DNA of 64,000 nucleotides from Escherichia coli. Its GTDB lineage: Bacteria; Pseudomonadota; Gammaproteobacteria; Enterobacterales; Enterobacteriaceae. Location of the stretch: NCBI RefSeq assembly GCF_050920415.1, contig NZ_CP169309.1. One strand, given 5' to 3'. Under the pieces are notes generated by a model. The model worked only from the letters and a program-made list of their open reading frames with translations. It was not told the DNA's origin and made no database searches. The translations under genes and the position numbers were made by a program. How positions within the stretch are numbered: the stretch's first letter is position 1; each line of letters begins with the position of its first letter. This document shows, in pieces, positions 10,843-64,000 of the stretch.

Positions 10843-12495
<1,653 letters not shown>

Positions 12496-12514
12496 GTAAA
12501 AAAGTTAGAACGGC

Positions 12515-12545
12515 AACGCGTACCCAGGGTACGCGTTGTTTGTCT
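12515..12545 (+). terminator. hairpin in pyrG-eno spacer (possible attenuator or processing site)
   Basis: AACGCGTAC-ccagg-GTACGCGTT followed by gtttgt. Confidence 0.35.
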
Positions 12546-12567
12546 GGAGTTTCAGTTTAACTAGTGA

Positions 12568-13881
<1,314 letters not shown>

Positions 13882-14813: not shown

Positions 14814-14818
14814 AACGA

Positions 14819-15966: not shown

Positions 15967-15980
15967 TTCAATTCCTTTTG

Positions 15981-18687: not shown

Positions 18688-18899
18688 GAGTTCCCCACGT
18701 CAGCGGGGATAAACCGCTATACGAAGTTATTAGGTCCGAAGAGGAGTTGAGTTCCCCACGTCAGCGGGGATAAACCGTTTACGTGTTATCGCGCACCGGC
18801 GACGGTGTGGAGTTCCCCGCGCCAGCGGGGATAAACCGATTCAGCAAATAGCGAATTTCATAAATATGATGTGTTCCCCGCGCCAGCGGGGATAAACCA
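18688..18899 (+). CRISPR. type I-E CRISPR array, 4 repeats / 3 spacers (ygcE-queE array)
   Basis: 29-bp repeats at 18688, 18749, 18810, 18871 with 32-bp spacers (period 61); repeats 1-2 are the variant GAGTTCCCCaCGtCAGCGGGGATAAACCG, repeat 3 is canonical, repeat 4 is degenerate (GtG..., terminal a). Confidence 0.9.
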
Positions 18900-19352: not shown

Positions 19353-19490
19353 ATATTCCTTGTAAAAACAGGGATAAACCGAACTAGTTAAAGTTTTTAT
19401 TATGTTCCCTGCATCAGCGGGGATAAACCGGACTTGTTATCATTTTTTAAGTTGTCGAACTTATGTTCCCCGCGCCAGCGGGGATAACCA
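19353..19490 (+). CRISPR. degenerate CRISPR remnant (2-3 decayed repeats)
   Basis: repeat-like units ending at 19381, 19430 and 19490 (atGTTCCCtGCatCAGCGGGGATAAACCG; atGTTCCCCGCGCCAGCGGGGATAACCA) with one 32-bp spacer 19431..19462. Confidence 0.6.
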
Positions 19491-19536
19491 TTCAGGTATG
19501 TTCAGGCCGGGCAGTTTCCCGCCCGGTCTTCCTCAC

Positions 19537-34665: not shown

Positions 34666-35400
34666 ATGTCCAAACTCGATCTAAATGCGCTGAACGAACT
34701 GTCGAAGGTAGATCGCATTCTGGCGCTGGCGGAAACTAACGCCGAGCTTGAAAAACTGGATGCTGAAGGCCGCGTCGCCTGGGCGCTGGATAATCTGCCC
34801 GGTGAATATGTGCTTTCTTCCAGCTTCGGCATTCAGGCGGCGGTGAGCCTGCATCTGGTGAATCAGGTTCGCCCGGATATTCCGGTGATCCTCACCGATA
34901 CGGGTTATCTGTTCCCTGAAACCTACCGCTTTATTGACGAGTTAACGGACAAACTCAAGCTCAACCTGAAAGTGTACCGCGCTACCGAAAGCGCTGCCTG
35001 GCAGGAAGCACGCTACGGCAAACTGTGGGAACAGGGCGTTGAAGGCATTGAAAAGTACAACGATATCAACAAAGTCGAACCGATGAACCGGGCGCTGAAA
35101 GAACTAAACGCGCAAACGTGGTTTGCTGGCCTGCGCCGTGAACAATCCGGCAGCCGCGCTAATTTACCGGTGCTGGCAATTCAGCGTGGTGTATTCAAAG
35201 TGCTGCCGATTATCGACTGGGATAACCGAACTATTTATCAGTACCTGCAAAAACATGGCCTGAAATATCATCCATTATGGGACGAAGGATATTTATCGGT
35301 CGGTGATACCCATACAACCCGTAAATGGGAACCTGGTATGGCGGAAGAAGAAACGCGTTTCTTTGGCTTAAAAAGGGAATGTGGGCTGCACGAAGGGTAA
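34666..35400 (+). CDS. cysH: phosphoadenosine phosphosulfate reductase
   Basis: 244-aa ORF; PAPS reductase family, C-terminal ECGLH motif. Confidence 0.95.
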
Positions 35401-35455: not shown

Positions 35456-35757
35456 TGCGAGCCGCATTCCGGCATTTAAACGTGAATATAGCAGGGGAAA
35501 TCAACAGTTATAGAATGGCGTCGGGTGCTTGAGGCTGTCTGGCGTTAAGCATTCGCGAGGTTCCAGATGGACAAAAGCCCCAGGCGATATATCTATCAAC
35601 CTGAGGCTCGCGTTCGAACGTAGCAATTCGGATGTTAGTCTCTTCTTTGCAGGGAGGCAAGACATGTGTATATCACTGTAATTCGATATTTATGAGCAGC
35701 ATCGAAAAATAGTCCACTGATATCATCGATAATACTAAAAAAACAGGGAGGCTATTA

Positions 35758-38424
35758 ATGGAACCTTTTAAATATATATGTCATTACTGGGGGAAATCCT
35801 CAAAAAGCCTGACGAAAGGAAATGATATTCATCTGTTGATTTATCATTGCCTGGATGTTGCAGCTGTTGCAGATTGCTGGTGGGATCAATCAGTCGTACT
35901 ACAAAATGCTTTTTGCCGAAATGAAATGCTATCAAAACAGAAGGTGAAAGCCTGGCTGTTATTTTTCATTGCCCTTCATGATATCGGAAAGTTTGATATA
36001 CGATTCCAATATAAATCAGCAGAAAGTTGGCTGAAATTAAATCCTGCAACGTCATCACTTAATGGTCCATCAACACAAATGTGCCGTAAATTTAATCATG
36101 GTGCAGCCGGTCTGTATTGGTTTAACCAGGATTCACTTTCAGAGCAATCTCCCGGGGATTTTTTCAGTTTTTTTGATGCCGCTCCTCATCCTTATGAGTC
36201 CTGGTTTCCTTGGGTAGAGGCCGTTACAGGACATCATGGTTTTATATTACATTCCCAGGATCAAGATAAGTCGCGTTGGGAAATGCCAGCTTCTCTGGCA
36301 TCTTATGCTGCGCAAGATAAACAGGCTCGTGAGGAGTGGATATCTGTACTCGAAGCATTATTTTTAACACCAGCCGGGTTATCTATAAACGATATACCAC
36401 CTGATTGTTCATCATTGTTAGCAGGTTTTTGCTCGCTTGCTGACTGGTTAGGTTCCTGGACCACAACGGATACCTTTCTATTCAAAGAAGATGCACCTTC
36501 AGGCATACAAGCGCTAAGAAAATATTTTCAGGATAGACAACAGGATGCGTGTCGGGTACTGGAGTTGAGTGGCCTTGTATCAAATAAGCGTAGTTATGAC
36601 GGCGTACATGCCTTACTGGACAATGGCTATCAACCAAGACAATTACAGGTGTTGGTTGATGCTCTTCCTACAGCTCCCGGGCTGACGGTGATTGAGGCAC
36701 CTACGGGATCAGGTAAAACCGAAACAGCGCTGGCCTATGCCTGGAAACTTATTGACCAACAACTTGCGGATAGTGTTATTTTTGCCCTCCCTACACAAGC
36801 TACTGCAAATGCAATGCTCAGCAGAATGGAAGCGAACGCGAGCCGTTTATTTACCTCCCCAAATCTTATTCTTGCTCATGGTAATTCACGTTTTAACCAC
36901 CTTTTTCAATCAATAAAATCACGCGCATTTACTGAGCAGGGGCAAGAAGAAGCGTGGGTTCAGTGTTGCCAATGGTTGTCACAAAGCAATAAGAAAGTGT
37001 TTCTTGGGCAAATAGGAGTTTGCACGATTGATCAGGTGTTGATATCGGTATTGCCAGTTAAACACCGCTTTATCCGTGGTTTGGGAATTGGTCGAAGTGT
37101 TTTAATTGTTGATGAAGTTCATGCTTACGACACGTATATGAACGGCTTGCTGGAGGCTGTGCTCAAGGCTCAGGCTGATGTGGGGGGGAGTGTTATTCTT
37201 CTTTCCGCAACTCTACCAATGAAACAAAAACAGAAACTTCTGGATACTTATGGTCTGCATACAGATCCAGAGGAAAATAACTCCGCATATCCACTCATTA
37301 ACTGGCGAGGTGTGAATGGTGCGCAACGTTTTGATCTGTTAGCTCATCCAGAACAACTCCCGCCCCGCTTTTCAATTCAGCTAGAACCTATTTATTTAGC
37401 TGACATGTTACCTGACCTTACGATGTTAGAGCGAATGATCGCAGCGGCAAACGCGGGTGCACAAGTCTGTCTTATTTGCAATTTGGTTGACGTTGCACAA
37501 GTATGCTACCAACGGCTAAAGGAGCTAAATAACACGCAAGTAGATATAGATTTGTTTCATGCACGCTTTACGCTGAACGATCGTCGAGAAAAAGAGAATC
37601 GTGTTATTAGCGATTTCGGAAAAAATGGGGATCGAAATGTTGGACGAATACTTGTCGCCACGCAAGTCGTGGAACAATCGCTCGACGTTGATTTTGATTG
37701 GTTAATTACCCAGCATTGTCCCGCAGATTTGCTTTTCCAACGATTGGGCCGTTTACATCGTCATCATCGCAAATATCGTCCCGCTGGTTTTGAGATTCCT
37801 GTTGCCACCATTTTGCTGCCTGATGGCGAGGGTTACGGACGACATGAGCATATTTATAGCAACGTTAGAGTCATGTGGCGGACGCAGCAACATATTGAGG
37901 AACTTAATGGAGCATCCTTATTTTTCCCTGATGCTTACCGGCAATGGCTGGATAGCATTTACGATGATGCGGAAATGGATGAGCCAGAATGGGTCGGCAA
38001 TGGCATGGATAAATTTGAAAGCGCCGAGTGTGAAAAAAGGTTCAAGGCTCGTAAGGTTCTGCAGTGGGCTGAAGAATATAGCTTGCAGGATAACGATGAA
38101 ACCATTCTTGCGGTAACGAGGGATGGGGAAATGAGCCTGCCATTATTGCCTTATGTACAAACGTCTTCAGGTAAACAACTGCTCGATGGCCAGGTCTACG
38201 AGGACCTAAGTCATGAACAGCAGTATGAGGTGTTAGCACTTAATCGCGTCAATGTACCCTTCACTTGGAAACGTAGTTTTTCTGAAGTAGTAGATGAAGA
38301 TGGGTTACTTTGGCTGGAAGGGAAACAGAATCAGGATGGATGGATCTGGCAGGGTAATAATATTGTTATTACCTACACTCGGGATGAAGGGATGACCAGA
38401 GTCATCCCTGCAAATCCCAAATAA
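35758..38424 (+). CDS. cas3: type I-E Cas3 HD nuclease / SF2 helicase
   Basis: 888-aa ORF; HD motif (LHDIGKF), Walker A APTGSGKTE, DEVH box (IVDEVHAYD). Confidence 0.96.
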   Translation: MEPFKYICHYWGKSSKSLTKGNDIHLLIYHCLDVAAVADCWWDQSVVLQNAFCRNEMLSKQKVKAWLLFFIALHDIGKFDIRFQYKSAESWLKLNPATSSLNGPSTQMCRKFNHGAAGLYWFNQDSLSEQSPGDFFSFFDAAPHPYESWFPWVEAVTGHHGFILHSQDQDKSRWEMPASLASYAAQDKQAREEWISVLEALFLTPAGLSINDIPPDCSSLLAGFCSLADWLGSWTTTDTFLFKEDAPSGIQALRKYFQDRQQDACRVLELSGLVSNKRSYDGVHALLDNGYQPRQLQVLVDALPTAPGLTVIEAPTGSGKTETALAYAWKLIDQQLADSVIFALPTQATANAMLSRMEANASRLFTSPNLILAHGNSRFNHLFQSIKSRAFTEQGQEEAWVQCCQWLSQSNKKVFLGQIGVCTIDQVLISVLPVKHRFIRGLGIGRSVLIVDEVHAYDTYMNGLLEAVLKAQADVGGSVILLSATLPMKQKQKLLDTYGLHTDPEENNSAYPLINWRGVNGAQRFDLLAHPEQLPPRFSIQLEPIYLADMLPDLTMLERMIAAANAGAQVCLICNLVDVAQVCYQRLKELNNTQVDIDLFHARFTLNDRREKENRVISDFGKNGDRNVGRILVATQVVEQSLDVDFDWLITQHCPADLLFQRLGRLHRHHRKYRPAGFEIPVATILLPDGEGYGRHEHIYSNVRVMWRTQQHIEELNGASLFFPDAYRQWLDSIYDDAEMDEPEWVGNGMDKFESAECEKRFKARKVLQWAEEYSLQDNDETILAVTRDGEMSLPLLPYVQTSSGKQLLDGQVYEDLSHEQQYEVLALNRVNVPFTWKRSFSEVVDEDGLLWLEGKQNQDGWIWQGNNIVITYTRDEGMTRVIPANPK

Positions 38425-38838
38425 CTTCGGGAATGATTGGTATCAATGACGATAACAAGACCAATAACGGTTTATCCCTACTTAAGTAGGGAAGGTGCAC
38501 AATGTACATCTTCTTTTAATTTCCCGGTATGAGATTTTATATTCACAGTATGAATATTTTATGTAATAAAATTTATGGTAATTATTATAACTAAAAATTT
38601 CTTTGATAATAAAACGAATAACTTGCAGATTTGAAATGCATGCATTATTGTCTTTAAACAATTCAACACATCTTAATATATGCATAGGTTAATTGTATTA
38701 AACCAATGAATATATTTTTGCAGTGAATGTGATTATTGAATTAATTACGCCGTATTTTTTCTTTGTTTTTACCGATAACGGAAGTGTGCCGACGTATAGA
38801 AATGCAGGAGAAATGTCGGAGCATATGAAGGAGAACAA
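38425..38838. promoter_or_regulatory. cas3-casA intergenic region holding the casA operon promoter (H-NS/LeuO-controlled in K-12)
   Basis: very AT-rich 414-bp spacer directly upstream of casA; the regulatory role is from established K-12 knowledge, not read from the sequence. Confidence 0.55.
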
Positions 38839-40347
38839 ATGAATTTGCTTATTGATAACTGGATCCCTGTACGCCCGCGAAACGGGGGGAAAGTCCAAAT
38901 CCTAAATCTGCAATCGCTATACTGCAGTAGAGATCAGTGGCGGTTAAGTTTGCCCCGTGACGATATGGAACTGGCCGCTTTAGCACTGCTGGTTTGCATT
39001 GCACAAATTATCGCCCCGGCAAAAGATGACGTTGAATTTCGACATCGCATAATGAATCCGCTCACTGAAGATGAGTTTCAACGACTCATCGCGCCGTGGA
39101 TAGATATGTTCTACCTTAATCACGCAGAACATCCCTTTATGCAGACCAAAGGTGTCAAAGCAAATGATGTGACTCCAATGGAAAAACTATTGGCAGGGGT
39201 AAGCGGCGCGACGAATTGTGCATTTGTCAATCAACCGGGGCAGGGTGAAGCATTATGTGGTGGATGCACTGCGATTGCGTTATTCAACCAGGCGAATCAG
39301 GCACCTGGTTTTGGTGGTGGCTTTAAAAGCGGTTTACGTGGAGGAACACCTATAACCACCTTCGTATGTGGGATCGATCTTCGCTCGACGGTGTTACTCA
39401 ATGTCCTCACAATACCTCGTCTTCAAAAACAATTTCCCAATGAATCAAATACGGAAAACCAACCTACCTGGATTAAGCCTGTCAAGCCCAATGAATCTGT
39501 GCCAGCTTCGTCAATTGGGTTTGTCCGTGGCTTATTCTGGCAACCAGCGCATATTGAATTATGCGATCCCATTGGGATTGGTAAATGTTCTTGCTGTGGA
39601 CAGGAAAGCAATTTGCGTTATACAGGTTTTCTTAAGGAAAAATTTACCTTTACAGTTAATGGGCTATGGCCCCATCCGCATTCCCCTTGTCTGGTAACAG
39701 TCAAGAAAGGGGAGGTTGAGGAAAAATTTCTTGCTTTCACCACCTCCGCACCATCATGGACGCAAATCAGCCGAGTTGTGGTAGATAAGATTATTCAAAA
39801 TGAAAATGGAAATCGCGTGGCGGCGGTTGTGAATCAATTCAGAAATATTGCGCCGCAAAGTCCTCTTGAATTGATTATGGGGGGATATCGTAATAATCAA
39901 GCATCTATTCTTGAACGACGTCATGATGTGCTGATGTTTAATCAGGGGTGGCAACAATACGGCAATGTTATAAACGAAATAGTGACTGTTGGTTTGGGGT
40001 ATAAAACAGCCTTACGCAAGGCGTTATATACTTTTGTGGAAGGTATTAAAAATAAAGACTTTAAAGGGGCTGGAGTCTCTGTTCATGAGACTGCAGAAAG
40101 GCATTTCTATCGACAGAGTGAATTATTAATTCCCGATGTATTGGCGAATGTTAATTTTTCCCAGGCTGATGAGGTAATAGCTGATTTACGAGACAAACTT
40201 CATCAATTGTGTGAAATGCTATTTAATCAATCTGTAGCTCCCTATGCACATCATCCTAAATTAATAAGCACATTAGCACTCGCCCGCGCCACGCTATACA
40301 AACATTTACGGGAGTTAAAACCGCAAGGAGGGCCATCAAATGGCTGA
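38839..40347 (+). CDS. casA: Cascade large subunit Cse1
   Basis: 502-aa ORF, first gene of casABCDE-cas1-cas2. Confidence 0.95.
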   Translation: MNLLIDNWIPVRPRNGGKVQILNLQSLYCSRDQWRLSLPRDDMELAALALLVCIAQIIAPAKDDVEFRHRIMNPLTEDEFQRLIAPWIDMFYLNHAEHPFMQTKGVKANDVTPMEKLLAGVSGATNCAFVNQPGQGEALCGGCTAIALFNQANQAPGFGGGFKSGLRGGTPITTFVCGIDLRSTVLLNVLTIPRLQKQFPNESNTENQPTWIKPVKPNESVPASSIGFVRGLFWQPAHIELCDPIGIGKCSCCGQESNLRYTGFLKEKFTFTVNGLWPHPHSPCLVTVKKGEVEEKFLAFTTSAPSWTQISRVVVDKIIQNENGNRVAAVVNQFRNIAPQSPLELIMGGYRNNQASILERRHDVLMFNQGWQQYGNVINEIVTVGLGYKTALRKALYTFVEGIKNKDFKGAGVSVHETAERHFYRQSELLIPDVLANVNFSQADEVIADLRDKLHQLCEMLFNQSVAPYAHHPKLISTLALARATLYKHLRELKPQGGPSNG

Positions 40348-40822
40348 TGAAATTGATGCAATGGCTTTATATCGAGCCTGGCAACAGCTGGATAACGGAG
40401 CATGTGCGCAAATTAGACGTGTTTCAGAACCTGATGATTTACGCGATATCCCTGCGTTTTATCGGTTGGTGCAACCTTTTGGTTGGGAAAACCTGCGTCA
40501 CCAACAGGCTCTTTTGCGCATGGTGTTTTGCCTGAGCGCAGGAAAGAATGTCATCCGACATCAGGATAAAAAACCGGAGCAAACAATAGGTATCTCGTTG
40601 GGAAGAGCTTTAGCCAATAGTGGAAGAATTAACGAGCGCCGTATCTTCCAATTGATTCGGGCTGACAGAACAGCCGATATGGTCCAGTTACGTCGATTGC
40701 TTGCTCACGCCGAACCCGTACTTGACTGGTCATTAATGGCCCGGATGTTGACCTGGTGGGGAAAGCGCGAACGCCAGCAACTTCTGGAAGATTTTGTATT
40801 GACCACAAACAAAAATGCGTAA
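40340..40822 (+). CDS. casB: Cascade small subunit Cse2
   Basis: 160-aa ORF overlapping casA by 8 bp. Confidence 0.95.
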   Translation: MADEIDAMALYRAWQQLDNGACAQIRRVSEPDDLRDIPAFYRLVQPFGWENLRHQQALLRMVFCLSAGKNVIRHQDKKPEQTIGISLGRALANSGRINERRIFQLIRADRTADMVQLRRLLAHAEPVLDWSLMARMLTWWGKRERQQLLEDFVLTTNKNA

Positions 40823-40834
40823 GGAAACCTCTCA

Positions 40835-41926
40835 ATGTCTAATTTTATTAATATCCATGTCCTGATCTCTCACAGCCCTTCATGTCTGAACCGCGACGAT
40901 ATGAACATGCAGAAAGACGCTATTTTCGGCGGGAAAAGGCGAGTAAGAATTTCAAGTCAAAGCCTTAAACGTGCGATGCGTAAAAGTGATTATTACGCAC
41001 AAAATATTGGTGAATCCAGTCTCAGAACAATTCATCTTGCACAATTACGTGATGTTCTTCGGCAAAAACTTGGTGAACGTTTTGAGCAAAAAATCATCGA
41101 TAAGACATTAGCTCTGCTCTCCGGTAAATCAGTTGATGAAGCTGAAAAGATTTCTGCCGATGCGGTTACTCCCTGGGTTGTGGGAGAAATAGCCTGGTTC
41201 TGTGAGCAGGTTGCAAAAGCAGAGGCAGATAATCTGGATGATAAAAAGCTGCTCAAAATTCTTAAGGAAGATATTGCCGCTATCCGTGTGAATTTACAGC
41301 AGGGGGTTGATATTGCGCTTAGCGGAAGAATGGCAACCAGCGGCATGATGAGTGAGTTGGGAAAAGTTGATGGTGCAATGTCCATTGCGCACGCGATCAC
41401 GACCCATCAGGTTGATTCTGATATTGACTGGTTCACCGCCGTAGATGATTTACAGGAACAAGGTTCTGCACATCTGGGAACACAGGAATTTTCATCGGGT
41501 GTTTTTTATCGTTATGCCAACATTAACCTTGCTCAACTTCAGGAAAATTTAGGCGGCGCCTCCTGGGAGCAGGCTCTGGAAATTGCAACCCATGTTGTTC
41601 ATATGCTGGCAACAGAGGTCCCTGGAGCAAAACAGCGTACTTATGCCGCTTTTAACCCTGCGGAGATGGTAATGGTTAATTTCTCCGATATGCCACTTTC
41701 TATGGCAAATGCTTTTGAAAAAGCGGTGAAAGCGAAAGATGGCTTTTTGCAACCGTCTATACAGGCGTTTAATCAATATTGGGATCGCGTTGCGAATGGC
41801 TATGGTCTGAACGGAGCTGCTGCGCAATTTAGCTTGTCTGACATGGACCCAATTACTGCTCAGGTTAAACAAATGCCTACTTTAGAACAGTTAAAATCCT
41901 GGGTTCGTAATAATGGCGAGGCGTGA
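40835..41926 (+). CDS. casC: Cascade backbone subunit Cas7e
   Basis: 363-aa ORF; [22 protein letters not shown]. Confidence 0.95.
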
Positions 41927-41928
41927 AC

Positions 41929-42603
41929 ATGAGATCTTATTTGATCTTGCGGCTTGCTGGGCCAATGCAAGCCTGGGGGCTGCCGACCTTTGAAGGAACG
42001 CGACCTACCGGAAGATTTCCGACCCGAAGCGGGTTATTAGGGCTACTCGGGGCTTGTCTTGGGATCCAACGTGATGATACTTCTTCATTACAGGTGTTAT
42101 CAGAGAGTGTGCAATTTGCAGTGCGTTGCGATGAACTCATTCTTGACGATCGTCGTGTGTCTGTAACGGGGTTGCGTGATTACCATACAGTCCTTGGAGC
42201 GCGAGAAGATTACCGTGGTTTGAAAAGTCATGAAACGATTCAAACATGGCGCGAATATTTATGTGATGCCTCCTTTACCGTCGCTATCTGGTTAACACCA
42301 CAGGCAACGATGGTTATGTCAGAACTTGAAAAAGCAGTATTAAAGCCTCGGTATACACCGTATCTGGGGCGGAGGAGTTGTCCGCTAACACAACCGCTTT
42401 TTCTCGGGACATGTCAGGCGTCGGATCCTCAGAAGGCGCTATTAAATTATGAGCCCGTTGGCGGCGATATTTATAGTGAGGAATCAGTTGACGGGCATCA
42501 TTTAAAATTTACGGTGCGCGACGAACCGATGATCACCTTACCTCGACAATTTGCTTCCCGGGAATGGTATGTGATTAAAGGAGGTATGGATGTATCTCAG
42601 TAA
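41929..42603 (+). CDS. casD: Cascade subunit Cas5e
   Basis: ORF 41923..42603; start taken at MRSYLILRLAGPMQAWG. Confidence 0.92.
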   Translation: MRSYLILRLAGPMQAWGLPTFEGTRPTGRFPTRSGLLGLLGACLGIQRDDTSSLQVLSESVQFAVRCDELILDDRRVSVTGLRDYHTVLGAREDYRGLKSHETIQTWREYLCDASFTVAIWLTPQATMVMSELEKAVLKPRYTPYLGRRSCPLTQPLFLGTCQASDPQKALLNYEPVGGDIYSEESVDGHHLKFTVRDEPMITLPRQFASREWYVIKGGMDVSQ

Positions 42604-43189
42604 AATCATCATTGCCAGGGCCTGTAGCAGGGATCTTTACCAACTTCACCAGGGATTATGGCATTTATTTCCAAATAGACCAGATGCTGCTCGTGATTTT
42701 CTTTTTCATGTTGAGAAGCGAAACACACCAGAAGGCTGTCATGTTTTATTGCAGTCAGCGCAAATGCCTGTTTCAACTGCCGTTGCGACAGTCATTAAAA
42801 CTAAACAGGTTGAATTTCAACTTCAGGTTGGTGTTCCACTCTATTTTCGGCTTCGGGCAAATCCGATCAAAACTATTCTCGACAATCAAAAGCGTCTGGA
42901 CAGTAAAGGGAATATTAAACGCTGTCGGGTTCCGTTAATAAAAGAAGCAGAACAAATCGCGTGGTTGCAACGTAAATTGGGCAATGCGGCGCGCGTTGAA
43001 GATGTGCATCCCATATCGGAACGGCCACAGTATTTTTCTGGGGAAGGTAAAAATGGAAAAATCCAAACGGTTTGCTTTGAAGGTGTGCTCACCGTCAATG
43101 ACGCATCAGCGTTAATGGATCTTATACAGCAAGGTATTGGGCCAGCCAAATCGATGGGATGTGGTTTGCTATCTTTGGCTCCACTGTGA
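42590..43189 (+). CDS. casE: Cas6e crRNA endoribonuclease
   Basis: 199-aa ORF; MYLSKIIIARA... Confidence 0.95.
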   Translation: MYLSKIIIARACSRDLYQLHQGLWHLFPNRPDAARDFLFHVEKRNTPEGCHVLLQSAQMPVSTAVATVIKTKQVEFQLQVGVPLYFRLRANPIKTILDNQKRLDSKGNIKRCRVPLIKEAEQIAWLQRKLGNAARVEDVHPISERPQYFSGEGKNGKIQTVCFEGVLTVNDASALMDLIQQGIGPAKSMGCGLLSLAPL

Positions 43190-43204
43190 TTGAGGTGTAA
43201 TAAA

Positions 43205-44408
<1,204 letters not shown>

Positions 44409-44513
44409 AAACAAAGAATTAGCTGATCTTTAATAATAAGGAAATGTTACATTAAGGTTGGTGGGTTGTTTTTATGGGAAAAAATGCTTTAAGAACAAAT
44501 GTATACTTTGAGA
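44409..44513 (+). promoter_or_regulatory. CRISPR leader
   Basis: AT-rich about 105 bp between the cas2 stop and the first repeat. Confidence 0.7.
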
Positions 44514-45701
44514 GAGTTCCCCGCGCCAGCGGGGATAAACCGCTCGCGTATACTCTCTGCCAACGTCTCCAGATGAGTTCCCCGCGCCAGCGGGGATAAA
44601 CCGGCGGGATTATCGGCACTGACGTCGGCGCTGTGGAGTTCCCCGCGCCAGCGGGGATAAACCGGGTCGCTTCCATATATGAACCTTGAGGATTAGGAGT
44701 TCCCCGCGCCAGCGGGGATAAACCGGTTCCATGCACTGCCCGCAGTGTCAGCCGTACGAGTTCCCCGCGCCAGCGGGGATAAACCGGTAAATCATACGTT
44801 GGCATCAGTATTTTTCTCGAGTTCCCCGCGCCAGCGGGGATAAACCGACTCCGCGCCATTTGAGAATTCTCAGTTCTGCGAGTTCCCCGCGCCAGCGGGG
44901 ATAAACCGCTACTGCTGTCAGACGGCAGGGCAAAACAGCGGAGTTCCCCGCGCCAGCGGGGATAAACCGGACGTGCGGATGCTGTTTCTGGTTTTACCTC
45001 CGAGTTCCCCGCGCCAGCGGGGATAAACCGTTTTTTCTCAGCGTCTGGCAGAGCTAATCGCCGAGTTCCCCGCGCCAGCGGGGATAAACCGGTGTCAAAT
45101 TTCATGTAATTGATGATCCAGCTGAGTTCCCCGCGCCAGCGGGGATAAACCGGGTATTTCTCGTTAACACGGTCGTATCAAAACGAGTTCCCCGCGCCAG
45201 CGGGGATAAACCGAGGGGTTGCAACCATAGCCCTTAGTTGATTGCGAGTTCCCCGCGCCAGCGGGGATAAACCGCCAGTGGATTTTAATAAACTCTCCAG
45301 CGAGCAGAGTTCCCCGCGCCAGCGGGGATAAACCGTTCGCCACGTCAGGCGTGATTTCCTGCACTGAGAGTTCCCCGCGCCAGCGGGGATAAACAGGGCG
45401 CGTCTGCGCCCGCTAGGACTCGTGTCAAGAGTTCCCCGCGCCAGCGGGGATAAACCGGGAGTTCAGACATAGGTGGAATGATGGACTACGAGTTCCCCGC
45501 GTTAGCGGGGATAAACCGCCCGGTAGCCAGGTTTGCAACGCCTGAACCGAGAGTTCCCCGCGCCAGCAGGGATAAATCGGCAACGACGGTGAGATTTCAC
45601 GCCTGACGCTGGTGTTCCCCGCATCAGCGGGGATAAACCGGGCGCACTGGATGCGATGATGGATATCACTTAGAATTCCCCGCCCCTGCGGTAGAACTCC
45701 C
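44514..45701 (+). CRISPR. type I-E CRISPR array, 20 repeats / 19 spacers
   Basis: 29-bp repeat GAGTTCCCCGCGCCAGCGGGGATAAACCG at 44514 and every 61 bp to 45673; 32-bp spacers; variants in repeats 15 (AAACaG), 17 (GCGttAGC), 18, 19 and a degenerate terminal repeat. Confidence 0.97.
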
Positions 45702-45721: not shown

Positions 45722-46759
45722 TCAAGACGCCTTCGCCAGTTCCTTCACTAGCGGTAGCATTATCCGCATAACGTCACGGCAGCGACGTTCTATTCTTCCA
45801 GGAAGCGCCTTATCAATATGCTGTTGATTATCAAGCCTTACATCATGCCAGCTATTTCCCGCCGGGAAGGCCGGTGTTTTTGCGCGTTGCTGATAACCAT
45901 CCTTATTTCCAAGATTCCAGTTGGTCGCCTCCACCGAAAGTACCGCAATACCGGCTTTGTCGAAAACTTCTGCATCGTTACAACACCCAGTGCCTTTCGG
46001 ATAGTTTTTATTCAAACCTGGATTTGTTGTCGCTGCAATCCCATGATTATGCGCAATTGCCAGCGCTCGATCACGGGTTAATTTCCTGACAGCCTCTGGT
46101 GTATTTACACCACTATTAAAATACAATTTATCGCCAACAATTAAGTTATCGAGATTAATCACCAGCAGCGTATTTTTCTTTTCAGTATCGCTCATGCGCT
46201 TGAGTAAATTCTCAGCGCCTAATTTCCCTTCTTCTTCTCCACTGGTTGCCACAAAACGAATACCATACTCGGTAGGCGTATTTTTCAGACGTTCAGCCAG
46301 TTCCAGCATGACACCTAAACCTGCGGCGTTATCATCCATTCCTTGTAATGTCAGCCCGCCGAGATTGGCATCGGCGTCGGCATCGCTCAGTGGAGCGTAC
46401 GTATCAAGATGCGCCATAATAATGATCTGCTGCGGCGCTTTGCCTTCATGAGCGGCAATCACCGTACTTCCCGTCACGTTGTGCCAGTTTTTGCGGTTAT
46501 CGCGGGCGGTGTAAATATATCGGCTATTAAATGTCCGAATATCACTGCGATAACCCATCTGTTGAAACTGTTGGCGAATATAATCGGCAGATAACATTTC
46601 TGCAGGAGTTCCGGTCATGCGTCCCGGAAAGAAAGTAGCAATATGTCGTGCCTGTGTATTAGCAAAATCACCAGGTTTAGGTGACGAGGCGTGTACGGGG
46701 AGAATAAAGCATACGCCGAGCGCCAGGGCAGCGGTACGGTGGCGCAATGCGGAAAACAT
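45722..46759 (-). CDS. iap: alkaline phosphatase isozyme conversion aminopeptidase
   Basis: 345-aa ORF with signal peptide and M28-type peptidase region; located between the CRISPR array and cysD. Confidence 0.9.
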   Translation of the reverse strand: MFSALRHRTAALALGVCFILPVHASSPKPGDFANTQARHIATFFPGRMTGTPAEMLSADYIRQQFQQMGYRSDIRTFNSRYIYTARDNRKNWHNVTGSTVIAAHEGKAPQQIIIMAHLDTYAPLSDADADANLGGLTLQGMDDNAAGLGVMLELAERLKNTPTEYGIRFVATSGEEEGKLGAENLLKRMSDTEKKNTLLVINLDNLIVGDKLYFNSGVNTPEAVRKLTRDRALAIAHNHGIAATTNPGLNKNYPKGTGCCNDAEVFDKAGIAVLSVEATNWNLGNKDGYQQRAKTPAFPAGNSWHDVRLDNQQHIDKALPGRIERRCRDVMRIMLPLVKELAKAS

Positions 46760-56796: not shown

Positions 56797-56832
56797 AAAG
56801 GCCAGTCTCTTATGAGGCTGGCCTTTTTCTTT
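56797..56832 (+). terminator. rpoS rho-independent terminator
   Basis: AAAGGCCAG-loop-CTGGCCTTTttcttttg. Confidence 0.7.
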
Positions 56833-56901
56833 TGTATGGGGAGTTGGTGTGTTTCGTCGCCTGGATAAGACACGTCAGCGTCCCATCCGGCAATCAACAT
56901 C

Positions 56902-57309
56902 CTATTTGCTCATCATCTTGCGCACCAGCTGCATAAACAGCTCCTGCTCTTCTCCACTCAAACGCCCCAAAAATTCCTCATCCACACTGTCGCCAATCGG
57001 TATCGCCGCAGCAAGTACCTTTTCTCCTTCGGCAGTCAGCCAGACAAAGCGTCGCCGCTTATCAGCGGTGTCATGTTCACGTCTGACTAAGCCACGATTT
57101 TCCATTCTTGCCAACATTTCTGCCAGCGTTGCTTTGGTGCTGACGGCTGCTTCCATCAGTGCCACCTGTTCGATACCAGGTTTATCAGCAATGGCGCGCA
57201 TCACCGCGTACTGTGGTTTGGTCAGGTCAGGTAACTCGTGCTGCCAGCGGGCCGTATGCTGCTGAAAAAGCTGTCGTAACTGATGGAACGCTTTATTTCG
57301 TAACGCCAT
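56902..57309 (-). CDS. MarR/SlyA-family transcriptional regulator
   Basis: 135-aa ORF with winged-helix MarR signature; divergent from the decarboxylase operon. Confidence 0.8.
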   Translation of the reverse strand: MALRNKAFHQLRQLFQQHTARWQHELPDLTKPQYAVMRAIADKPGIEQVALMEAAVSTKATLAEMLARMENRGLVRREHDTADKRRRFVWLTAEGEKVLAAAIPIGDSVDEEFLGRLSGEEQELFMQLVRKMMSK

Positions 57310-57424
57310 GTAAACTCCGGGCTAATTCTCTGTCGCTATCATAGCGGTTTTTCAGTGACGAAGAAGATGTTGTTACTTTTCAATCCTTGCCGCTGTGGAA
57401 ATGAAGGAGTATGTTAATAATAAC

Positions 57425-57438
57425 GTTCGTATACGAAC
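57425..57438. promoter_or_regulatory. perfect 14-bp palindrome, candidate MarR operator
   Basis: GTTCGTATACGAAC about 18 bp upstream of the ubiX-like start, in the divergent promoter region. Confidence 0.45.
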
Positions 57439-57455
57439 AATTAAGATAGTAAGCA

Positions 57456-58049
57456 ATGAAACTGATCGTCGGGATGACAGGGGCTACCGGTGCGCCTCTT
57501 GGTGTGGCATTACTGCAAGCGCTGCGGGAGATGCCGAATGTCGAGACTCATCTGGTGATGTCGAAGTGGGCGAAAACCACTATTGAACTGGAAACGCCTT
57601 ACAGCGCTCGCGATGTTGCCGCCCTCGCTGACTTCAGCCATAACCCGGCGGATCAGGCTGCGACCATCTCTTCCGGCTCCTTTCGTACCGACGGCATGAT
57701 CGTTATTCCATGCAGTATGAAAACGCTCGCCGGTATCCGCGCTGGTTACGCCGATGGTCTCGTAGGGCGCGCGGCGGACGTCGTGCTCAAAGAAGGCCGC
57801 AAACTGGTGCTGGTGCCGCGTGAAATGCCGCTTAGCACCATCCATCTCGAAAATATGCTCGCACTTTCGCGCATGGGCGTGGCGATGGTGCCGCCGATGC
57901 CTGCCTTTTATAACCATCCCGAAACGGTAGATGACATTGTCCACCACGTGGTAGCCCGCGTGCTGGATCAATTTGGCCTCGAACATCCTCACGCCAGGCG
58001 CTGGCAAGGGTTGCCGCAGGCCCGGAATTTTTCTCAGGAGAATGAATAA
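57456..58049 (+). CDS. ecdB: UbiX/Pad1-family flavin prenyltransferase (decarboxylase subunit B)
   Basis: 197-aa ORF; MKLIVGMTGATGAPLG flavoprotein motif. Confidence 0.85.
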   Translation: MKLIVGMTGATGAPLGVALLQALREMPNVETHLVMSKWAKTTIELETPYSARDVAALADFSHNPADQAATISSGSFRTDGMIVIPCSMKTLAGIRAGYADGLVGRAADVVLKEGRKLVLVPREMPLSTIHLENMLALSRMGVAMVPPMPAFYNHPETVDDIVHHVVARVLDQFGLEHPHARRWQGLPQARNFSQENE

Positions 58050-59476
58050 TGGCATTTGATGATTTACGCAGCTTTTTACAGGCGCTCGACGACCAGGGGC
58101 AATTGCTGAAAATCAGCGAAGAGGTGAATGCCGAGCCGGATCTGGCTGCCGCTGCCAACGCCACCGGGCGTATCGGCGACGGCGCGCCCGCGCTGTGGTT
58201 TGATAATATTCGCGGCTTTACCGATGCGCGCGTGGCGATGAACACCATCGGCTCCTGGCAGAACCACGCGATTTCCCTCGGGCTGCCACCGAACACACCG
58301 GTTAAAAAACAGATTGATGAGTTTATCCGCCGCTGGGATAACTTTCCCATTGCCCCGGAACGCCGCGCCAATCCTGCCTGGGCGCAGAACACCGTCGATG
58401 GCGACGAGATCAATTTGTTCAATATCCTGCCGCTGTTTCGTTTAAACGATGGCGATGGCGGTTTCTATCTCGACAAAGCGTGCGTGGTTTCCCGCGATCC
58501 GCTCGATCCGGATAACTTCGGCAAGCAGAACGTCGGCATCTATCGCATGGAAGTGAAGGGTAAGCGTAAGCTCGGCCTGCAACCGGTGCCGATGCACGAT
58601 ATCGCCCTGCATCTGCATAAAGCAGAAGAGCGCGGTGAAGATCTGCCGATTGCGATCACGCTCGGTAACGATCCGATCATCACCCTGATGGGCGCCACCC
58701 CGCTGAAATATGATCAATCGGAGTACGAAATGGCGGGCGCACTACGCGAAAGCCCGTACCCGATCGCCACCGCCCCGCTGACCGGTTTTGATGTGCCGTG
58801 GGGCTCGGAGGTGATCCTCGAAGGGGTAATCGAAAGCCGTAAACGCGAGATTGAAGGGCCGTTCGGTGAATTTACCGGCCACTACTCCGGCGGGCGCAAC
58901 ATGACCGTGGTGCGCATCGATAAAGTCTCTTACCGCACCAAACCGATTTTTGAATCGCTCTATCTCGGTATGCCGTGGACCGAAATCGACTACCTGATGG
59001 GGCCAGCCACCTGTGTGCCGCTGTATCAGCAACTGAAAGCCGAGTTCCCGGAAGTGCAGGCGGTGAACGCTATGTACACCCACGGCCTGCTGGCGATTAT
59101 CTCCACCAAAAAACGCTATGGCGGCTTTGCCCGCGCAGTGGGCCTGCGTGCGATGACCACGCCGCACGGTCTGGGTTATGTGAAGATGGTGATTATGGTC
59201 GATGAAGACGTTGACCCGTTCAACCTGCCGCAGGTGATGTGGGCGCTCTCGTCGAAAGTGAACCCGGCAGGCGATCTGGTGCAACTGCCGAATATGTCCG
59301 TGCTGGAACTCGACCCAGGCTCAAGCCCGGCGGGGATCACCGATAAGCTGATTATCGACGCCACCACGCCTGTCGCCCCGGACAACCGTGGCCACTACAG
59401 CCAGCCGGTGGTGGACTTACCGGAAACCAAAGCCTGGGCTGAAAAACTGACCGCTATGCTGGCCGCACGTAAATAA
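58049..59476 (+). CDS. ecdC: UbiD-family (hydroxyarylic acid) decarboxylase subunit C
   Basis: 475-aa ORF with UbiD family signature; start overlaps the ubiX-like stop. Confidence 0.85.
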   Translation: MAFDDLRSFLQALDDQGQLLKISEEVNAEPDLAAAANATGRIGDGAPALWFDNIRGFTDARVAMNTIGSWQNHAISLGLPPNTPVKKQIDEFIRRWDNFPIAPERRANPAWAQNTVDGDEINLFNILPLFRLNDGDGGFYLDKACVVSRDPLDPDNFGKQNVGIYRMEVKGKRKLGLQPVPMHDIALHLHKAEERGEDLPIAITLGNDPIITLMGATPLKYDQSEYEMAGALRESPYPIATAPLTGFDVPWGSEVILEGVIESRKREIEGPFGEFTGHYSGGRNMTVVRIDKVSYRTKPIFESLYLGMPWTEIDYLMGPATCVPLYQQLKAEFPEVQAVNAMYTHGLLAIISTKKRYGGFARAVGLRAMTTPHGLGYVKMVIMVDEDVDPFNLPQVMWALSSKVNPAGDLVQLPNMSVLELDPGSSPAGITDKLIIDATTPVAPDNRGHYSQPVVDLPETKAWAEKLTAMLAARK

Positions 59477-59486
59477 GGAGAACAAG

Positions 59487-59723
59487 ATGATTTGTCCACG
59501 TTGTGCCGATGAACAGATTGAAGTGATGGCGAAATCGCCGGTGAAAAATGTCTGGACGGTCTACCAGTGCCAGCATTGCCTTTATACCTGGCGCGATACT
59601 GAACCGCTACGCCGCACCAGCCGCGAACATTATCCCGAAGCCTTCCGCATGACGCAGAAAGATATTGATGACGCGCCGATGGTGCCGAGCATCCCGCCGC
59701 TGCTGGCGGAAGGTAAGCGCTAA
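59487..59723 (+). CDS. ecdD: small decarboxylase subunit D (zinc-ribbon-like)
   Basis: 78-aa ORF with CPRC...CQHC motif, third gene of a B-C-D decarboxylase operon. Confidence 0.7.
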   Translation: MICPRCADEQIEVMAKSPVKNVWTVYQCQHCLYTWRDTEPLRRTSREHYPEAFRMTQKDIDDAPMVPSIPPLLAEGKR

Positions 59724-59726
59724 ATA

Positions 59727-59757
59727 AAAGGTCCGATGCCCATCGGACCTTTTTATT
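59727..59757. terminator. bidirectional terminator between ecdD and ygbN
   Basis: AAAGGTCCGATG-cc-CATCGGACCTTTttatt. Confidence 0.6.
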
Positions 59758-59761
59758 AAGG

Positions 59762-61126
59762 TCAAATTACCGCCCATACGCACCAGGTAATTAAGAATCC
59801 GGTAAAACCGAGAATGGTCGTTAACACTGTCCAGGTTTTCAGACCGTCTGCTACCGACAACCCCAGATATTTGGTCACAATCCAGAACCCTGAGTCATTA
59901 ATATGTGACGCGCCAAGCCCACCAAAGCAGGCTGCCAGCGTCACCAATACGCACTGAATCGGATTCAATCCCATCACCGCTTCTGAGAGTAACCCGCCGG
60001 TTGTCAGGATTGCTACGGTTGCTGACCCCTGCGATGCACGCAGCGCCAGTGAAATAATAAATGCGGCTGGTAACAGAGGCAGGTCAATCATTTGTAGCAT
60101 GTTGGCAAGGGCTTTGCCGACGCCCGATTCCACCAGCACTTTGCCAAATACCCCTCCAGCACCAGTAACCAAAATCACTACCGCCGCAGTGGGAAGGGCT
60201 GAGCCCATAATGTCGCTGGTGTGTTGTAAGCTCCAGCCGCGACGTAAAGCCAATAACCAGAATGCCAGCACCAGCGCAATCATTAGAGCTACCATTGGTG
60301 AGCCGATCAGCTGTAGCGTACCAAGCAGGGGATGCGAAGGCGGCATCAGTGTTGCGGAAACCGTACCCGCCATGATAATCGCGATAGGAATAACAATTAG
60401 CGAGGTGACCAGCGCGACGCCCGGTGGATTTATTTTATCGCTTAATTTTGTCGCGCCTTCCTCACTGGCCGGAGCCAGTTGCATCTGTTCCAGTACTTCC
60501 ACCGACATCGCATATTGGCGCTTATTGATTATTTTCGCTGCAAAGTAGCCAACAATCCCTACGGGAATAGAAATCGCAATACCGATGATGGTTAGCCAGC
60601 CGATGTCTGCGTGGAGTAACCCCGCTGCGGCGACAGGGCCTGGATGCGGCGGTACCGCCACATGAACAGTTAGCATGATTCCAGCGACAGGCAGGCCAAA
60701 TTTGAGTGGCGATATTTTGGCAACCTTGGCAAAACCGTAAATGATTGGCGCAAGAATAATAAAGCCGACATCAAAGAAGACGGGAATACCGAGGAAGAAC
60801 GCTGCCAGAGTCAGCGCAGCGATAGTTCGTTTGTCACCTAACTTGCGACTGAAATAATTAGCCAGTGACTCTGCACCACCAGAGTGTTCGATCATACGCC
60901 CCAGCATAGCGCCCAGACCAATAATAATAGTGACGGAACCAAGCACACCGCCCATCCCGGCGATCATCACTTTACCCACTTCGCCCGCCGGTATACCCGC
61001 CGCAAGTGCGACTAACAGGCTGACGAGGAGCAGAGCAACGAATGGTTGTACCTTTGCCTTGATGACCAGCAGCAACAGCATGATTACGCCAGTTAACGCA
61101 ATGCATAACAATGTAATTGTGGACAT
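59762..61126 (-). CDS. ygbN: GntP-family permease
   Basis: 454-aa ORF, multi-TM GntP profile. Confidence 0.85.
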   Translation of the reverse strand: MSTITLLCIALTGVIMLLLLVIKAKVQPFVALLLVSLLVALAAGIPAGEVGKVMIAGMGGVLGSVTIIIGLGAMLGRMIEHSGGAESLANYFSRKLGDKRTIAALTLAAFFLGIPVFFDVGFIILAPIIYGFAKVAKISPLKFGLPVAGIMLTVHVAVPPHPGPVAAAGLLHADIGWLTIIGIAISIPVGIVGYFAAKIINKRQYAMSVEVLEQMQLAPASEEGATKLSDKINPPGVALVTSLIVIPIAIIMAGTVSATLMPPSHPLLGTLQLIGSPMVALMIALVLAFWLLALRRGWSLQHTSDIMGSALPTAAVVILVTGAGGVFGKVLVESGVGKALANMLQMIDLPLLPAAFIISLALRASQGSATVAILTTGGLLSEAVMGLNPIQCVLVTLAACFGGLGASHINDSGFWIVTKYLGLSVADGLKTWTVLTTILGFTGFLITWCVWAVI

Positions 61127-61213
61127 GGGAAACCCTGTCTGAAAGTTATAGTTAACCTACCCCTCCGTAGATGGGGGGATGTATGGGTACGTTGTAATTA
61201 GGGATTTAACGAA

Positions 61214-61990
61214 TTAGCGCCAGGCGTCAAACCAGCCAAGCCCTTCTTCGGTGAGGCCACGAGGTTTATATTCACAACCGATCCAGCCCTGATATCCCAC
61301 CTCATCGAACAGGCGGAACAGCCACGGATAGTTGATTTCTCCATCGTCCGGTTCATGTCGATCAGGTAGTCCGGCAATTTGTACGTGCGCATATTTCCCG
61401 GCGTAGTCGCGGATTAAATGCGTCAGGTTGCCATCTACTTTTTGCGCATGAAAAGTATCTAGTTGAATAAACACGTTATCTCGCGCAACTTCTTCAACAA
61501 TAGCCAGTGCCTGATACTGGCTGGAGAAGAGATAATGAGGCTTAACGCCGGGGCTGAGTGCTTCAACTAATATTCGCTTGCCGTGTGGCGCAAAGCGGTC
61601 GGCAGCGTAGCGGAGATTATCGATAAATACTGCCCTGTACCGTTCAGCATCTTCGCCAGCGGGCACGACGCCTGCCATCACATGGACTTGTTCACAATTG
61701 AGCGCCAATGCATATTCCAGTGCCAGGTCGATGTCTGCGTGTGCTTCGTGCTCACGTCCGGGAAGGGCGGATAATCCCCATTCCCCCGCATTAATATCTC
61801 CGGGAGCGGTATTGAACAGCGCCAGTGTCAGATGGTTTTGCTCCAGTTGCTTTTGGATTTGCAGGGTGGAGTAGTTATAGGGAAACAGAAATTCCACAGC
61901 ATCGAACCCGGCTTTTCGCGCTGCGGCGAAGCGTTCAATAAAAGGCACTTCGGTGAACATCATGGATAAATTAGCTGCAAAACGAGGCAT
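61214..61990 (-). CDS. ygbM: hydroxypyruvate-isomerase-like TIM-barrel isomerase
   Basis: 258-aa ORF; [21 protein letters not shown]. Confidence 0.85.
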
Positions 61991-61994
61991 TGCA

Positions 61995-62633
61995 TTAACT
62001 CCTTAATTCCGCAATTTCACCTGCGGTCAGATAACGGATCGGGCGGTCACCGAGAATAAAAATCAGCTTTGCCGTTTCCTCCAGCTCTTCCATATTGTTG
62101 GCGGCTTCTTGCAGGCTTTCACCGCAAACCACTGGGCCATGATTTGCCAGTAAAAAAGCCTGATTGTCTGCTGCCAGTTCCGCCAGATCCTGTGCGATGC
62201 GTTTATCGCCCGGTCGGTAATAAGGCACCAGCGGGATATTTCCCATCCGCATCACCACGTATGGTGTGAACGGACGAATAACGTTGCTGCTGTCCAGCCC
62301 TTGCAGGCAGGAAAGCGCCGTCGACCATGTGCTGTGCAAATGCACCACCGCTTTACAGCGCGGATTGTTGCGATACAGCGCCAGATGAAAGAGCACCTCT
62401 TTCGAGGGTTTGTCACCACTTAACCATTCGCCATCCGCGGCGACTTTGGAAAGCCGCTGCGGATCGAGATTGCCCAGGCATGAACCTGTCGGTGTCGCCA
62501 GTAAATTCCCGTCAGGTAAAAGCAGCGACAGATTGCCAGCCGAACCGGTTGCATAGCCGCGCTGAAAGAATGAACTGGCAATCCGCGTCATCTCCTCTCG
62601 CAAAGACTGCTCTACTTTTGCGAAATCGCTCAT
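61995..62633 (-). CDS. ygbL: class II aldolase/adducin-family protein
   Basis: 212-aa ORF. Confidence 0.85.
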
Positions 62634-63892
62634 GATAAAAACTCTCTTTGGGCTCGTGAAAAAAAGGCTTCATCACCGAAGTTGCCAGATTTAAGGGCGA
62701 GTGAGACAGGCTTATCCAGTGCGTTTACCCACGGCACGCCGGGGGAAATGGTTGGGCCAATATGAAACCCTTTTATTCTCAGGCTCTGTGTGACTACGCC
62801 GGAGGTCTCACCGCCTGCGACAATAAAGCGTGTCACGCCTTCCGCTGCTAACCGCGCCGCTAGTTGAGAAAACAGTGTTTCTACTGCCTGACTGGCTTTT
62901 TGTGCACCGTATTGCTGTTGAATTGCTGCCAATGCGTCAGTGCTGGCGGTGGCAAAAACCAGTGGAGCAAGTACACCTTCCTGGCCCAGAACCCACTCTG
63001 CCAGCTCGTGTGCATAAGCGGCCAGAGTTTCGGTTGAGAGGCAGCGTGCCACATCAACTTCACGGGCTGGTGCAATTTGACGGTAATGTGCTACCTGGCG
63101 GTTGGTCATTTGAGAGCATGAACCGGAGAGCACTACGCCGCGCCCAGCGAGCGGATGCCCTGCTTTGCGAGCCTGGTTACCGTTTTCTTGCGCCCACTGC
63201 CGGGCAAGGCCAATCGCCAGACCAGAACCGCCCGTTACCAGTGGGGCATCGCGCAAGGCTTCCCCCTGAATTTCCAGATGGTGTTCGGTCAGCGCATCAA
63301 GCACCGCGTAGCGGTAGCCCTCTTGCTGTAAGCGAGCCAGCTCTTGACGAACGGCATCCACACCTTGTTCGAAAACATGTGCCGAAACGACGCCGCAGCG
63401 CCCTGTGGATTGCGCTTCAACCAGACGGGGAAGATAGCTGTCGGTCATGGGATTTACCGGGTGATGGCGCATCCCGGATTCGGCCAGCAGTTGATTCATT
63501 ACGAACAAATACCCCTGATAAACCGTACGTCCGTTGACCGGCAGGGCCGGAGAGAAGACCGTAAACGGCGTGTCGAGAGCATCCATTAATGCATCGGTAA
63601 CCGGGCCGATATTACCTTTCGCCGTACTGTCGAAAGTAGAGCAGTATTTGAAATAGATCTGTTTGCAACCTTGCTGTTGCAACCAGCTCAGAGCCGCCAG
63701 CGATTGCTGTGTGGCTTCAACCACCGGACAGGAACGCGTTTTCAGGCTGATCACCAGTGCGTCGATTGCTTCCGGCATTTTACCTGTTGGAACACCGTTA
63801 ATTTGTACCGTTGGTAGACCGTTTTCCACCAGAAAACTGGCGATATCCGTCGCGCCGGTAAAATCATCGGCGATAACGCCAATCTTGATCAT
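62630..63892 (-). CDS. ygbK: four-carbon acid sugar kinase family protein
   Basis: 420-aa ORF; MIKIGVIADDFTGATD. Confidence 0.85.
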   Translation of the reverse strand: MIKIGVIADDFTGATDIASFLVENGLPTVQINGVPTGKMPEAIDALVISLKTRSCPVVEATQQSLAALSWLQQQGCKQIYFKYCSTFDSTAKGNIGPVTDALMDALDTPFTVFSPALPVNGRTVYQGYLFVMNQLLAESGMRHHPVNPMTDSYLPRLVEAQSTGRCGVVSAHVFEQGVDAVRQELARLQQEGYRYAVLDALTEHHLEIQGEALRDAPLVTGGSGLAIGLARQWAQENGNQARKAGHPLAGRGVVLSGSCSQMTNRQVAHYRQIAPAREVDVARCLSTETLAAYAHELAEWVLGQEGVLAPLVFATASTDALAAIQQQYGAQKASQAVETLFSQLAARLAAEGVTRFIVAGGETSGVVTQSLRIKGFHIGPTISPGVPWVNALDKPVSLALKSGNFGDEAFFSRAQREFLS

Positions 63893-64000
63893 GATTTCGC
63901 TCCCGGTAGAGTGATGCCAGAGAAAATCTTGATAACTGCGCTATCGTCTTCTTTCCCGTAACCCGCGTTACTGGCGCTGGTGAACATATTCAATGCTGTT
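63889..64000 (-). CDS. ygbJ: NAD-dependent dehydrogenase, C-terminal fragment (5' end outside window)
   Basis: open frame on minus strand ending in TGA that overlaps the ygbK ATG (ATGA); too short for a firm call. Confidence 0.5.
   Translation of the reverse strand, partial: TALNMFTSASNAGYGKEDDSAVIKIFSGITLPGAKS

Follow-up and report, generated by a model that had tools for sequence, protein, structure and literature searches.

Gene content of the type I-E locus between cysH and iap

The stretch of DNA analysed here (hereafter the window) comprises 64,000 nucleotides of the Escherichia coli contig NZ_CP169309.1 (assembly GCF_050920415.1), and our interest lies in the type I-E system of short palindromic repeats, clustered and regularly interspaced (CRISPR), and CRISPR-associated (cas) genes that it carries at positions 35758-45701, flanked by cysH (34666-35400) on one side and by iap (45722-46759, minus strand) on the other. 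The interval begins on the first base of the cas3 ATG and finishes on the final base of the terminal repeat, exactly as the initial annotation had delimited it. According to the list of open reading frames (ORFs), the cas genes are eight uninterrupted plus-strand frames, and their succession (cas3, casA or cse1, casB or cse2, casC or cas7, casD or cas5, casE or cas6e, cas1 and cas2), followed by a leader of 105 nt and by an array of 20 repeats and 19 spacers, is the order of a type I-E operon (Table 1).

Table 1. Coordinates and properties of the features described in the window (model scores in bits; the last column gives amino-acid identity to the K-12 protein, with the number of substitutions in brackets)
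Feature	Coordinates	Strand	Description	Model and score	Identity to K-12
cas3	35758-38424	+	888 aa, HD nuclease and superfamily 2 (SF2) helicase	NF007248, 1612.8 against a cut-off of 569, residues 1-882	96.7% (29)
cas3-casA intergenic region	38425-38838		414 bp, K-12 length; 408/414 identical to K-12
casA / cse1 / cas8e	38839-40347	+	502 aa, large Cascade subunit reading the protospacer-adjacent motif (PAM)	NF007247, 900.3 against 576, full length	97.6% (12)
casB / cse2 / cas11	40340-40822	+	160 aa	TIGR02548, 57 against a cut-off of 28.5	95.7% (7)
casC / cas7	40835-41926	+	363 aa, Cascade backbone	TIGR01869, 425.6	98.1% (7)
casD / cas5e	41929-42603	+	224 aa	TIGR01868, 277.5	96.4% (8)
casE / cas6e	42590-43189	+	199 aa, endonuclease of precursor CRISPR RNA (pre-crRNA)	TIGR01907, 264.5	96.0% (8)
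cas1	43205-44122	+	305 aa, integrase	TIGR03638, 375.6	98.7% (4)
cas2	44124-44408	+	94 aa	TIGR01873, 142.9	97.9% (2: T66S, L75V)
CRISPR I leader	44409-44513	+	105 nt; promoter, integration host factor (IHF) site, integrase-anchoring site
CRISPR I array	44514-45701	+	20 repeats of 29 nt, 19 spacers of 32 nt, exact 61-bp period
Spacer S8	44970-45001	+	32/32, 5'-AAG PAM; lambdoid prophage early gene, in 441/5426 genomes including ST131 EC958 and E24377A
Spacer S11	45153-45184	+	32/32, upstream triplet GCG; lambdoid prophage of STEC379
Spacer S15	45397-45428	+	32/32, AAG PAM; replication endonuclease (gene A) of P2-like prophages
CRISPR II array	18688-18899	+	4 repeats, 3 spacers, adjoins queE; same system
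CRISPR II spacer 1	18717-18748	+	32/32, 5'-ATG PAM; lox site region of P1-like phage-plasmids
Remnant array	19402-19491	+	2 degenerate repeats, 1 spacer, as in K-12
286-aa ORF	14819-15679	-	In segment 14600-17471; no Pfam match
TPM-domain protein	15981-16919	-	In segment 14600-17471
LemA-family protein	16903-17505	-	In segment 14600-17471
UbiX/Pad1-type flavoprotein	57456-58049		In segment 56827-59723
UbiD-family decarboxylase	58049-59476		In segment 56827-59723

The corresponding region of K-12 MG1655 served as the reference, to which the genes were aligned one by one. All eight cas genes have the K-12 lengths and the K-12 ATG starts and are free of internal stops; for casD we have taken the ATG at 41929, as in K-12, within a frame that opens at a GTG at 41923, and for cas1 the ATG at 43205, again as in K-12, within a frame that opens at a TTG at 43190. 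The locus is collinear with that of K-12, without large insertions or deletions, and holds no frameshift, stop or insertion sequence (IS) element, although IS-disrupted versions are present in other strains. The curated type I-E models of NCBIfam, run on each Cas protein, recognize all eight above their cut-offs over the full length; CasA scores in addition 528.9 bits with TIGR02547, and Cas3 is matched by both the cas3_HD and the cas3_core domains. The claim that the type I-E locus is complete and uninterrupted is therefore borne out by eight full-length frames that pass their models and by the presence of leader and array.

The same holds for the motifs that had been described as conserved. 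The alignment to K-12 reveals no substitution at any of the residues that were checked: in Cas3 the HD pair (H74/D75), GSGKT (K320), DEVH (452-455), SAT (483-485), motif V (VATQVVEQSLD) and motif VI (QRLGRLHR), in Cas1 the metal-binding triad E141, H208 and D221, and in CasE the catalytic H20. These residues of Cas3, Cas1 and CasE are the catalytic ones of the K-12 proteins. A search of the PDB for Cas3 returned no E. coli structure and distant homologues only (4Q2C, 4QQW), and the residue-level checks are those of the K-12 alignment. One statement of the initial annotation went too far, namely that Cas2 differs from its K-12 counterpart at several positions; just two of its 94 residues do, through two nucleotide differences that are both non-synonymous.

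The pattern of substitution along the locus is informative in another respect. In comparison with K-12, the ratio of non-synonymous to synonymous substitution rates (dN/dS) lies between 0.05 and 0.25 for cas3 through cas1, the lowest value among the cas genes measured being that of cas1 (0.05), and is about 0.02 for cysI and cysH; such values indicate that the cas genes are under purifying selection, weaker than that acting on housekeeping genes. Furthermore, the exact sequences of all eight Cas proteins are found in public records, on 74 to 132 contigs each and, for Cas2, on at least 1000. Since they recur in this way, the Cas proteins of the window are standing alleles rather than private, possibly damaged ones.

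Upstream of casA, the intergenic region that follows cas3 is better conserved with respect to K-12 than the flanking genes. In K-12 this region carries Pcas, anti-Pcas and the sites for H-NS and LeuO (and LrhA), and the operon stays silent until it is de-repressed, being silenced by H-NS and activated by LeuO or LrhA (PMC10011333, PMC12968389). A scan for consensus promoters and terminators found fewer promoter-like sites than in shuffled sequence and picked out neither Pcas nor the leader promoter, and was uninformative. At the other end of cas3, between this gene and cysH, Rfam recognizes a sok antitoxin RNA at 35523-35678 on the plus strand (97.1 bits, where the gathering score is 59), which corresponds to the sokX locus of K-12; the cysH-cas3 spacer is identical to K-12 at 331 of 358 positions.

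Arrays, leaders and spacer targets

The repeats follow a 29-nt palindromic consensus, GAGTTCCCCGCGCCAGCGGGGATAAACCG, which is that of K-12, has 23 matches in the window where 0 would be expected by chance, and folds into a 7-bp hairpin of -15.1 kcal/mol (z-score -3.6). At its gathering threshold, Rfam recognizes only the sok RNA upstream of cas3 and no family of CRISPR repeats. The last repeat of CRISPR I (45673-45701) is degenerate, and four others depart from the consensus: R15 ends with AG in place of CG, R17 has a change in the loop, R18 bears a stem mismatch that weakens its hairpin to -9.7 kcal/mol, and R19 has three changes but keeps its folding. With the exception of one base in R18, the changes of these variant repeats are shared with the old repeats of K-12. 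A 122-bp period reported by Tandem Repeats Finder over 44818-45152 hinted at related pairs of spacers; pairwise local alignment of the 22 spacers gave scores of at most 12/32, which is the level of chance, and this candidate was rejected.

The type I-E system of the window is not confined to this interval and spans two further arrays. CRISPR II has a leader whose last 60 nt are identical to those of K-12, and its two leader-proximal repeats, R1 and R2 (18688-18777), share a double variant, G10A in the stem and C13T in the loop, by which the hairpin falls from -15.1 to -9.7 kcal/mol. These two repeats flank a spacer that matches the lox site of phage P1. Spacer acquisition copies the first repeat; the presence of two adjacent and identical variant repeats therefore suggests that the variant had already arisen when the P1-lox spacer was taken up, and that the variant repeat was then usable for integration. 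Changes in the repeat stem are reported to lower the binding of Cas1-Cas2 in vitro (PMC5389526). In the third, remnant array, the spacer is identical to that of K-12.

Of the 105 positions of the CRISPR I leader, 104 agree with K-12, among them those of the reported IHF site (-9 to -35) and integrase-anchoring site (-50 to -53) (PMC10011333; PMC5224486). The sole difference is a T to G change at position -4. The 60-mer of the window that includes this G occurs in one of the 1201 complete genomes having this junction, and the exact K-12 60-mer is present in 1039 of 1221 complete genomes. Which bases next to the junction matter has been put differently by different authors: one review places the contact of Cas1-Cas2 with the leader at -1 to -4 (PMC10011333), and elsewhere only -2, -1 and +1 are named as rate-determining junction bases (PMC5389526). 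In the literature on leader position -4, we found no direct test of this base.

Targets were sought with the spacers by themselves in the 5,426 complete genomes of E. coli, and the PAMs were read from the target loci. Four spacers match mobile elements over 32 of 32 positions, three of them next to an AAG or ATG PAM (Table 1). An ATG PAM supports type I-E interference. AAG is the consensus PAM of type I-E systems (PMC10011333). If 4 of the 64 triplets are taken as working, the chance that at least three of four exact targets carry a working PAM is about 0.001. The target of spacer S11 is a gene for a hypothetical protein in the STEC379 prophage, close to ninG and to replication gene P, and S15 matches, besides its P2-like targets, a record of Enterobacter hormaechei at 30 of 32 positions, next to AAA; the latter was the one real lead obtained when the CRISPR I array was compared with a plasmid collection. 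The same array compared with 50,697 phage records gave misfiled arrays and chance matches only, and no protospacer. Within the 64 kb of the window, no spacer matches elsewhere when up to 8 mismatches are allowed.

The first spacer of CRISPR II deserves a separate mention. Its protospacer spans the left arm of lox, and several of the records matched give it the annotation "lox recombination site". We estimate that more than 150 P1-like E. coli plasmids, together with three P1 phage records, match it at 32 of 32 positions; the estimate derives from the 159 plasmid places reported and from the fact that, among the 60 of 176 records listed, every plasmid matches this spacer. The reference P1 and P7 sequences match at 31 of 32 positions, at a site bearing the same annotation. 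P1-like phage-plasmids often carry resistance genes. As a whole, these targets are in agreement with the observation that E. coli spacers are mainly directed against prophages, and confirm it rather than adding anything new (PMC10910852). Were the system to be expressed, its spacer memory would be directed against temperate phages of the lambdoid, P2-like and P1-like kinds.

Relation to K-12 and to the closest strains

The whole window is collinear with positions 2,862,227-2,921,333 of K-12, at 95-97% nucleotide identity over most of its length and 91.8% in a short block around queE. At the locus itself, the likeness to K-12 MG1655 (b2754-b2761, with CRISPR II near queE) extends to the site between cysH and iap, the gene order, the lengths of genes and intergenic regions and the repeat consensus; it also includes the oldest part of the array, spacers S16-S18 being identical to the oldest full spacers of K-12, S19 differing by one mismatch and the degenerate terminal repeat being shared, as well as the CRISPR II leader and the remnant array. 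The differences lie in the cas genes, at 95-97% nucleotide identity (99% for cas2), in the leader base at -4, in the variant R1 and R2 of CRISPR II and above all in the spacers, which number 19 in CRISPR I, where K-12 has 13, and 3 in CRISPR II, where K-12 has 6, all the newer ones being different. The proposal that the DNA belongs to a lineage other than K-12 is thus upheld by the overall divergence and by the spacer content, and not by Cas2, on which it had been founded.

In 1,095 of the 5,426 complete genomes of E. coli, at least 80% of the cas locus lies in one place; the full-length matches are for the most part about 94% identical, and only three genomes match at 99% or more. The nearest complete genome, MFDS1022581 (NZ_CP169399.1), encodes seven of the eight Cas proteins in identical form, together with identical cysI and cysH; the sole difference in Cas3 is at residue 400, where MFDS1022581 has C and both the window and K-12 have W. 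Its leader is also identical, with G at -4. Thirteen spacers (S1-S3 and S9-S18) are common to the two arrays in the same order, and the array of MFDS1022581 (locus 11757-12578) is without exactly S4-S8 of the window. As the spacers on either side of this block occur in both arrays, loss of S4-S8 from MFDS1022581 by an internal repeat-to-repeat deletion of five units is the simplest account. The search of complete genomes found no protospacer of S8 in MFDS1022581, the only match there being the array itself.

A broader placement of the source strain can be proposed from the Cas proteins. Records of strain M863 (EGB62261-EGB62266) are among the listed exact matches for CasA, CasB, CasC, CasD, CasE and Cas1; the M863 Cas2 record, EGB62260.1, is 102 aa long and belongs to the same 90% cluster without being an exact match, and no M863 Cas3 record is among the matches listed. 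M863 is described as a member of Escherichia clade I (PMC4182557). Judging from protein identity only, the strain from which the window derives probably belongs to this clade as well.

Comparison of the window with K-12 brought to light several differences away from the CRISPR-Cas system. The mazEF toxin-antitoxin genes, which in K-12 lie between relA and mazG, are absent (window 9743-9839): 95 bp lie between the stop of relA and the start of mazG, and K-12 has about 690 bp more. Between eno/ygcG and queE, about 2.9 kb (14600-17471) have no counterpart in K-12; genes of this segment, as of the next, are given in Table 1. A variable segment between rpoS and ygbN (56827-59723), absent from K-12, is presumably the known polymorphic rpoS-mutS region. 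From ygbN onward, that is, over the last 4.3 kb (59723-64000), identity to K-12 rises to 99.3%, against 92-97% elsewhere, and this jump suggests that a recombination boundary may lie near the rpoS variable region.

State and function of the system

Taken together, we consider that the window carries a standard E. coli type I-E CRISPR-Cas immune locus which is intact in its sequence and is likely silenced by H-NS by default, and we would put the probability of this reading at roughly 90%. The system is ordinary and already known, and neither the leader variant nor the P1-lox spacer affects its classification. By analogy with K-12, the arrays would be transcribed from their leaders, and CasE would cut each repeat hairpin to yield CRISPR RNAs (crRNAs) of 61 nt, which would load into Cascade (CasA, CasB, CasC, CasD and CasE). 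CasA would then read the 5'-AAG or 5'-ATG PAM while the crRNA forms an R-loop, and the recruitment of Cas3 would lead to nicking and degradation of the target; for adaptation, Cas1-Cas2 and IHF would insert new 33-bp spacers at the leader-repeat junction. Given that the Pcas region is identical to K-12 at 408 of 414 positions, silencing by H-NS is likely to be the default state of the operon in the window, which LeuO or LrhA could relieve as they do in K-12.

Some of our observations weigh against this reading and have to be set beside it. The Cas proteins bear 77 substitutions with respect to K-12, some of which are non-conservative (W12C in CasE, R244W in CasC, and L132P, V505E and K625D in Cas3). 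Variant repeats occur in both arrays (R15, R17, R18 and R19 of CRISPR I, R1 and R2 of CRISPR II), with a weakened hairpin in R18 and in the CRISPR II variant. The sole target identified for S11 lies next to GCG, which is not a consensus PAM, and the rare change at -4 falls within the stretch of the leader that Cas1-Cas2 is reported to contact (PMC10011333). Finally, the window and MFDS1022581 have the same three newest spacers, which implies that no spacer has been acquired since the two separated and fits a system that is mostly dormant.

This last point leads to the question of whether the locus is a relic, intact in sequence and yet dormant, either permanently silenced or impaired in adaptation (for instance by the -4 change or by missense alleles), and providing no current immunity. 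We hold this to be unlikely, though it deserves serious attention. The array has gained no leader-proximal spacer relative to MFDS1022581, the sole array difference being the internal block of five units; the -4 variant is rare, and the Pcas region is nearly identical to the one that H-NS silences in K-12. Published work also reports that the arrays of E. coli stay the same for long times and that its system shows no activity in the laboratory (PMC10910852, PMC10011333). On the other side, dN/dS values of 0.05-0.25 over about 8.6 kb indicate that purifying selection is continuing, the locus has been spared by frameshifts, stops and IS elements, and perfect spacer matches with correct PAMs to circulating phages suggest that the stored memory is still relevant; position -4, moreover, is not listed with the rate-determining bases of the junction in PMC5389526.

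It could also be asked whether the locus is kept mainly for a role other than defence, such as DNA repair linked to Cas1 or gene regulation. The K-12 Cas1 (YgbT) has reportedly been linked to DNA repair, and dN/dS is lower for cas1 than for any other cas gene measured, which would be indirect support. However, all the interference genes are conserved and not cas1 alone, no spacer matches the window itself, and exact matches to phages or prophages are found for four spacers, three of them with working PAMs, as would be expected of an immune memory; we regard such a role as very improbable. Rather little credence, even if somewhat more, is given to the idea that the particular features of this copy have consequences of their own, the T to G change at -4 altering the efficiency or fidelity of spacer integration and, separately, the P1-lox spacer blocking P1-like elements when the operon is de-repressed.

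A standard immune locus that would be held silent by H-NS thus remains the interpretation we prefer, and its value is mainly for annotation: the window offers a sequence-intact copy of a well-studied system, at its standard site and with alleles that are already public. The set of spacers is usable as a marker for strain typing and, if the strain does belong to clade I, it comes from an under-sampled lineage of Escherichia. The rare variant of the leader-repeat junction, for its part, could serve to probe which bases of the leader are needed for integration.

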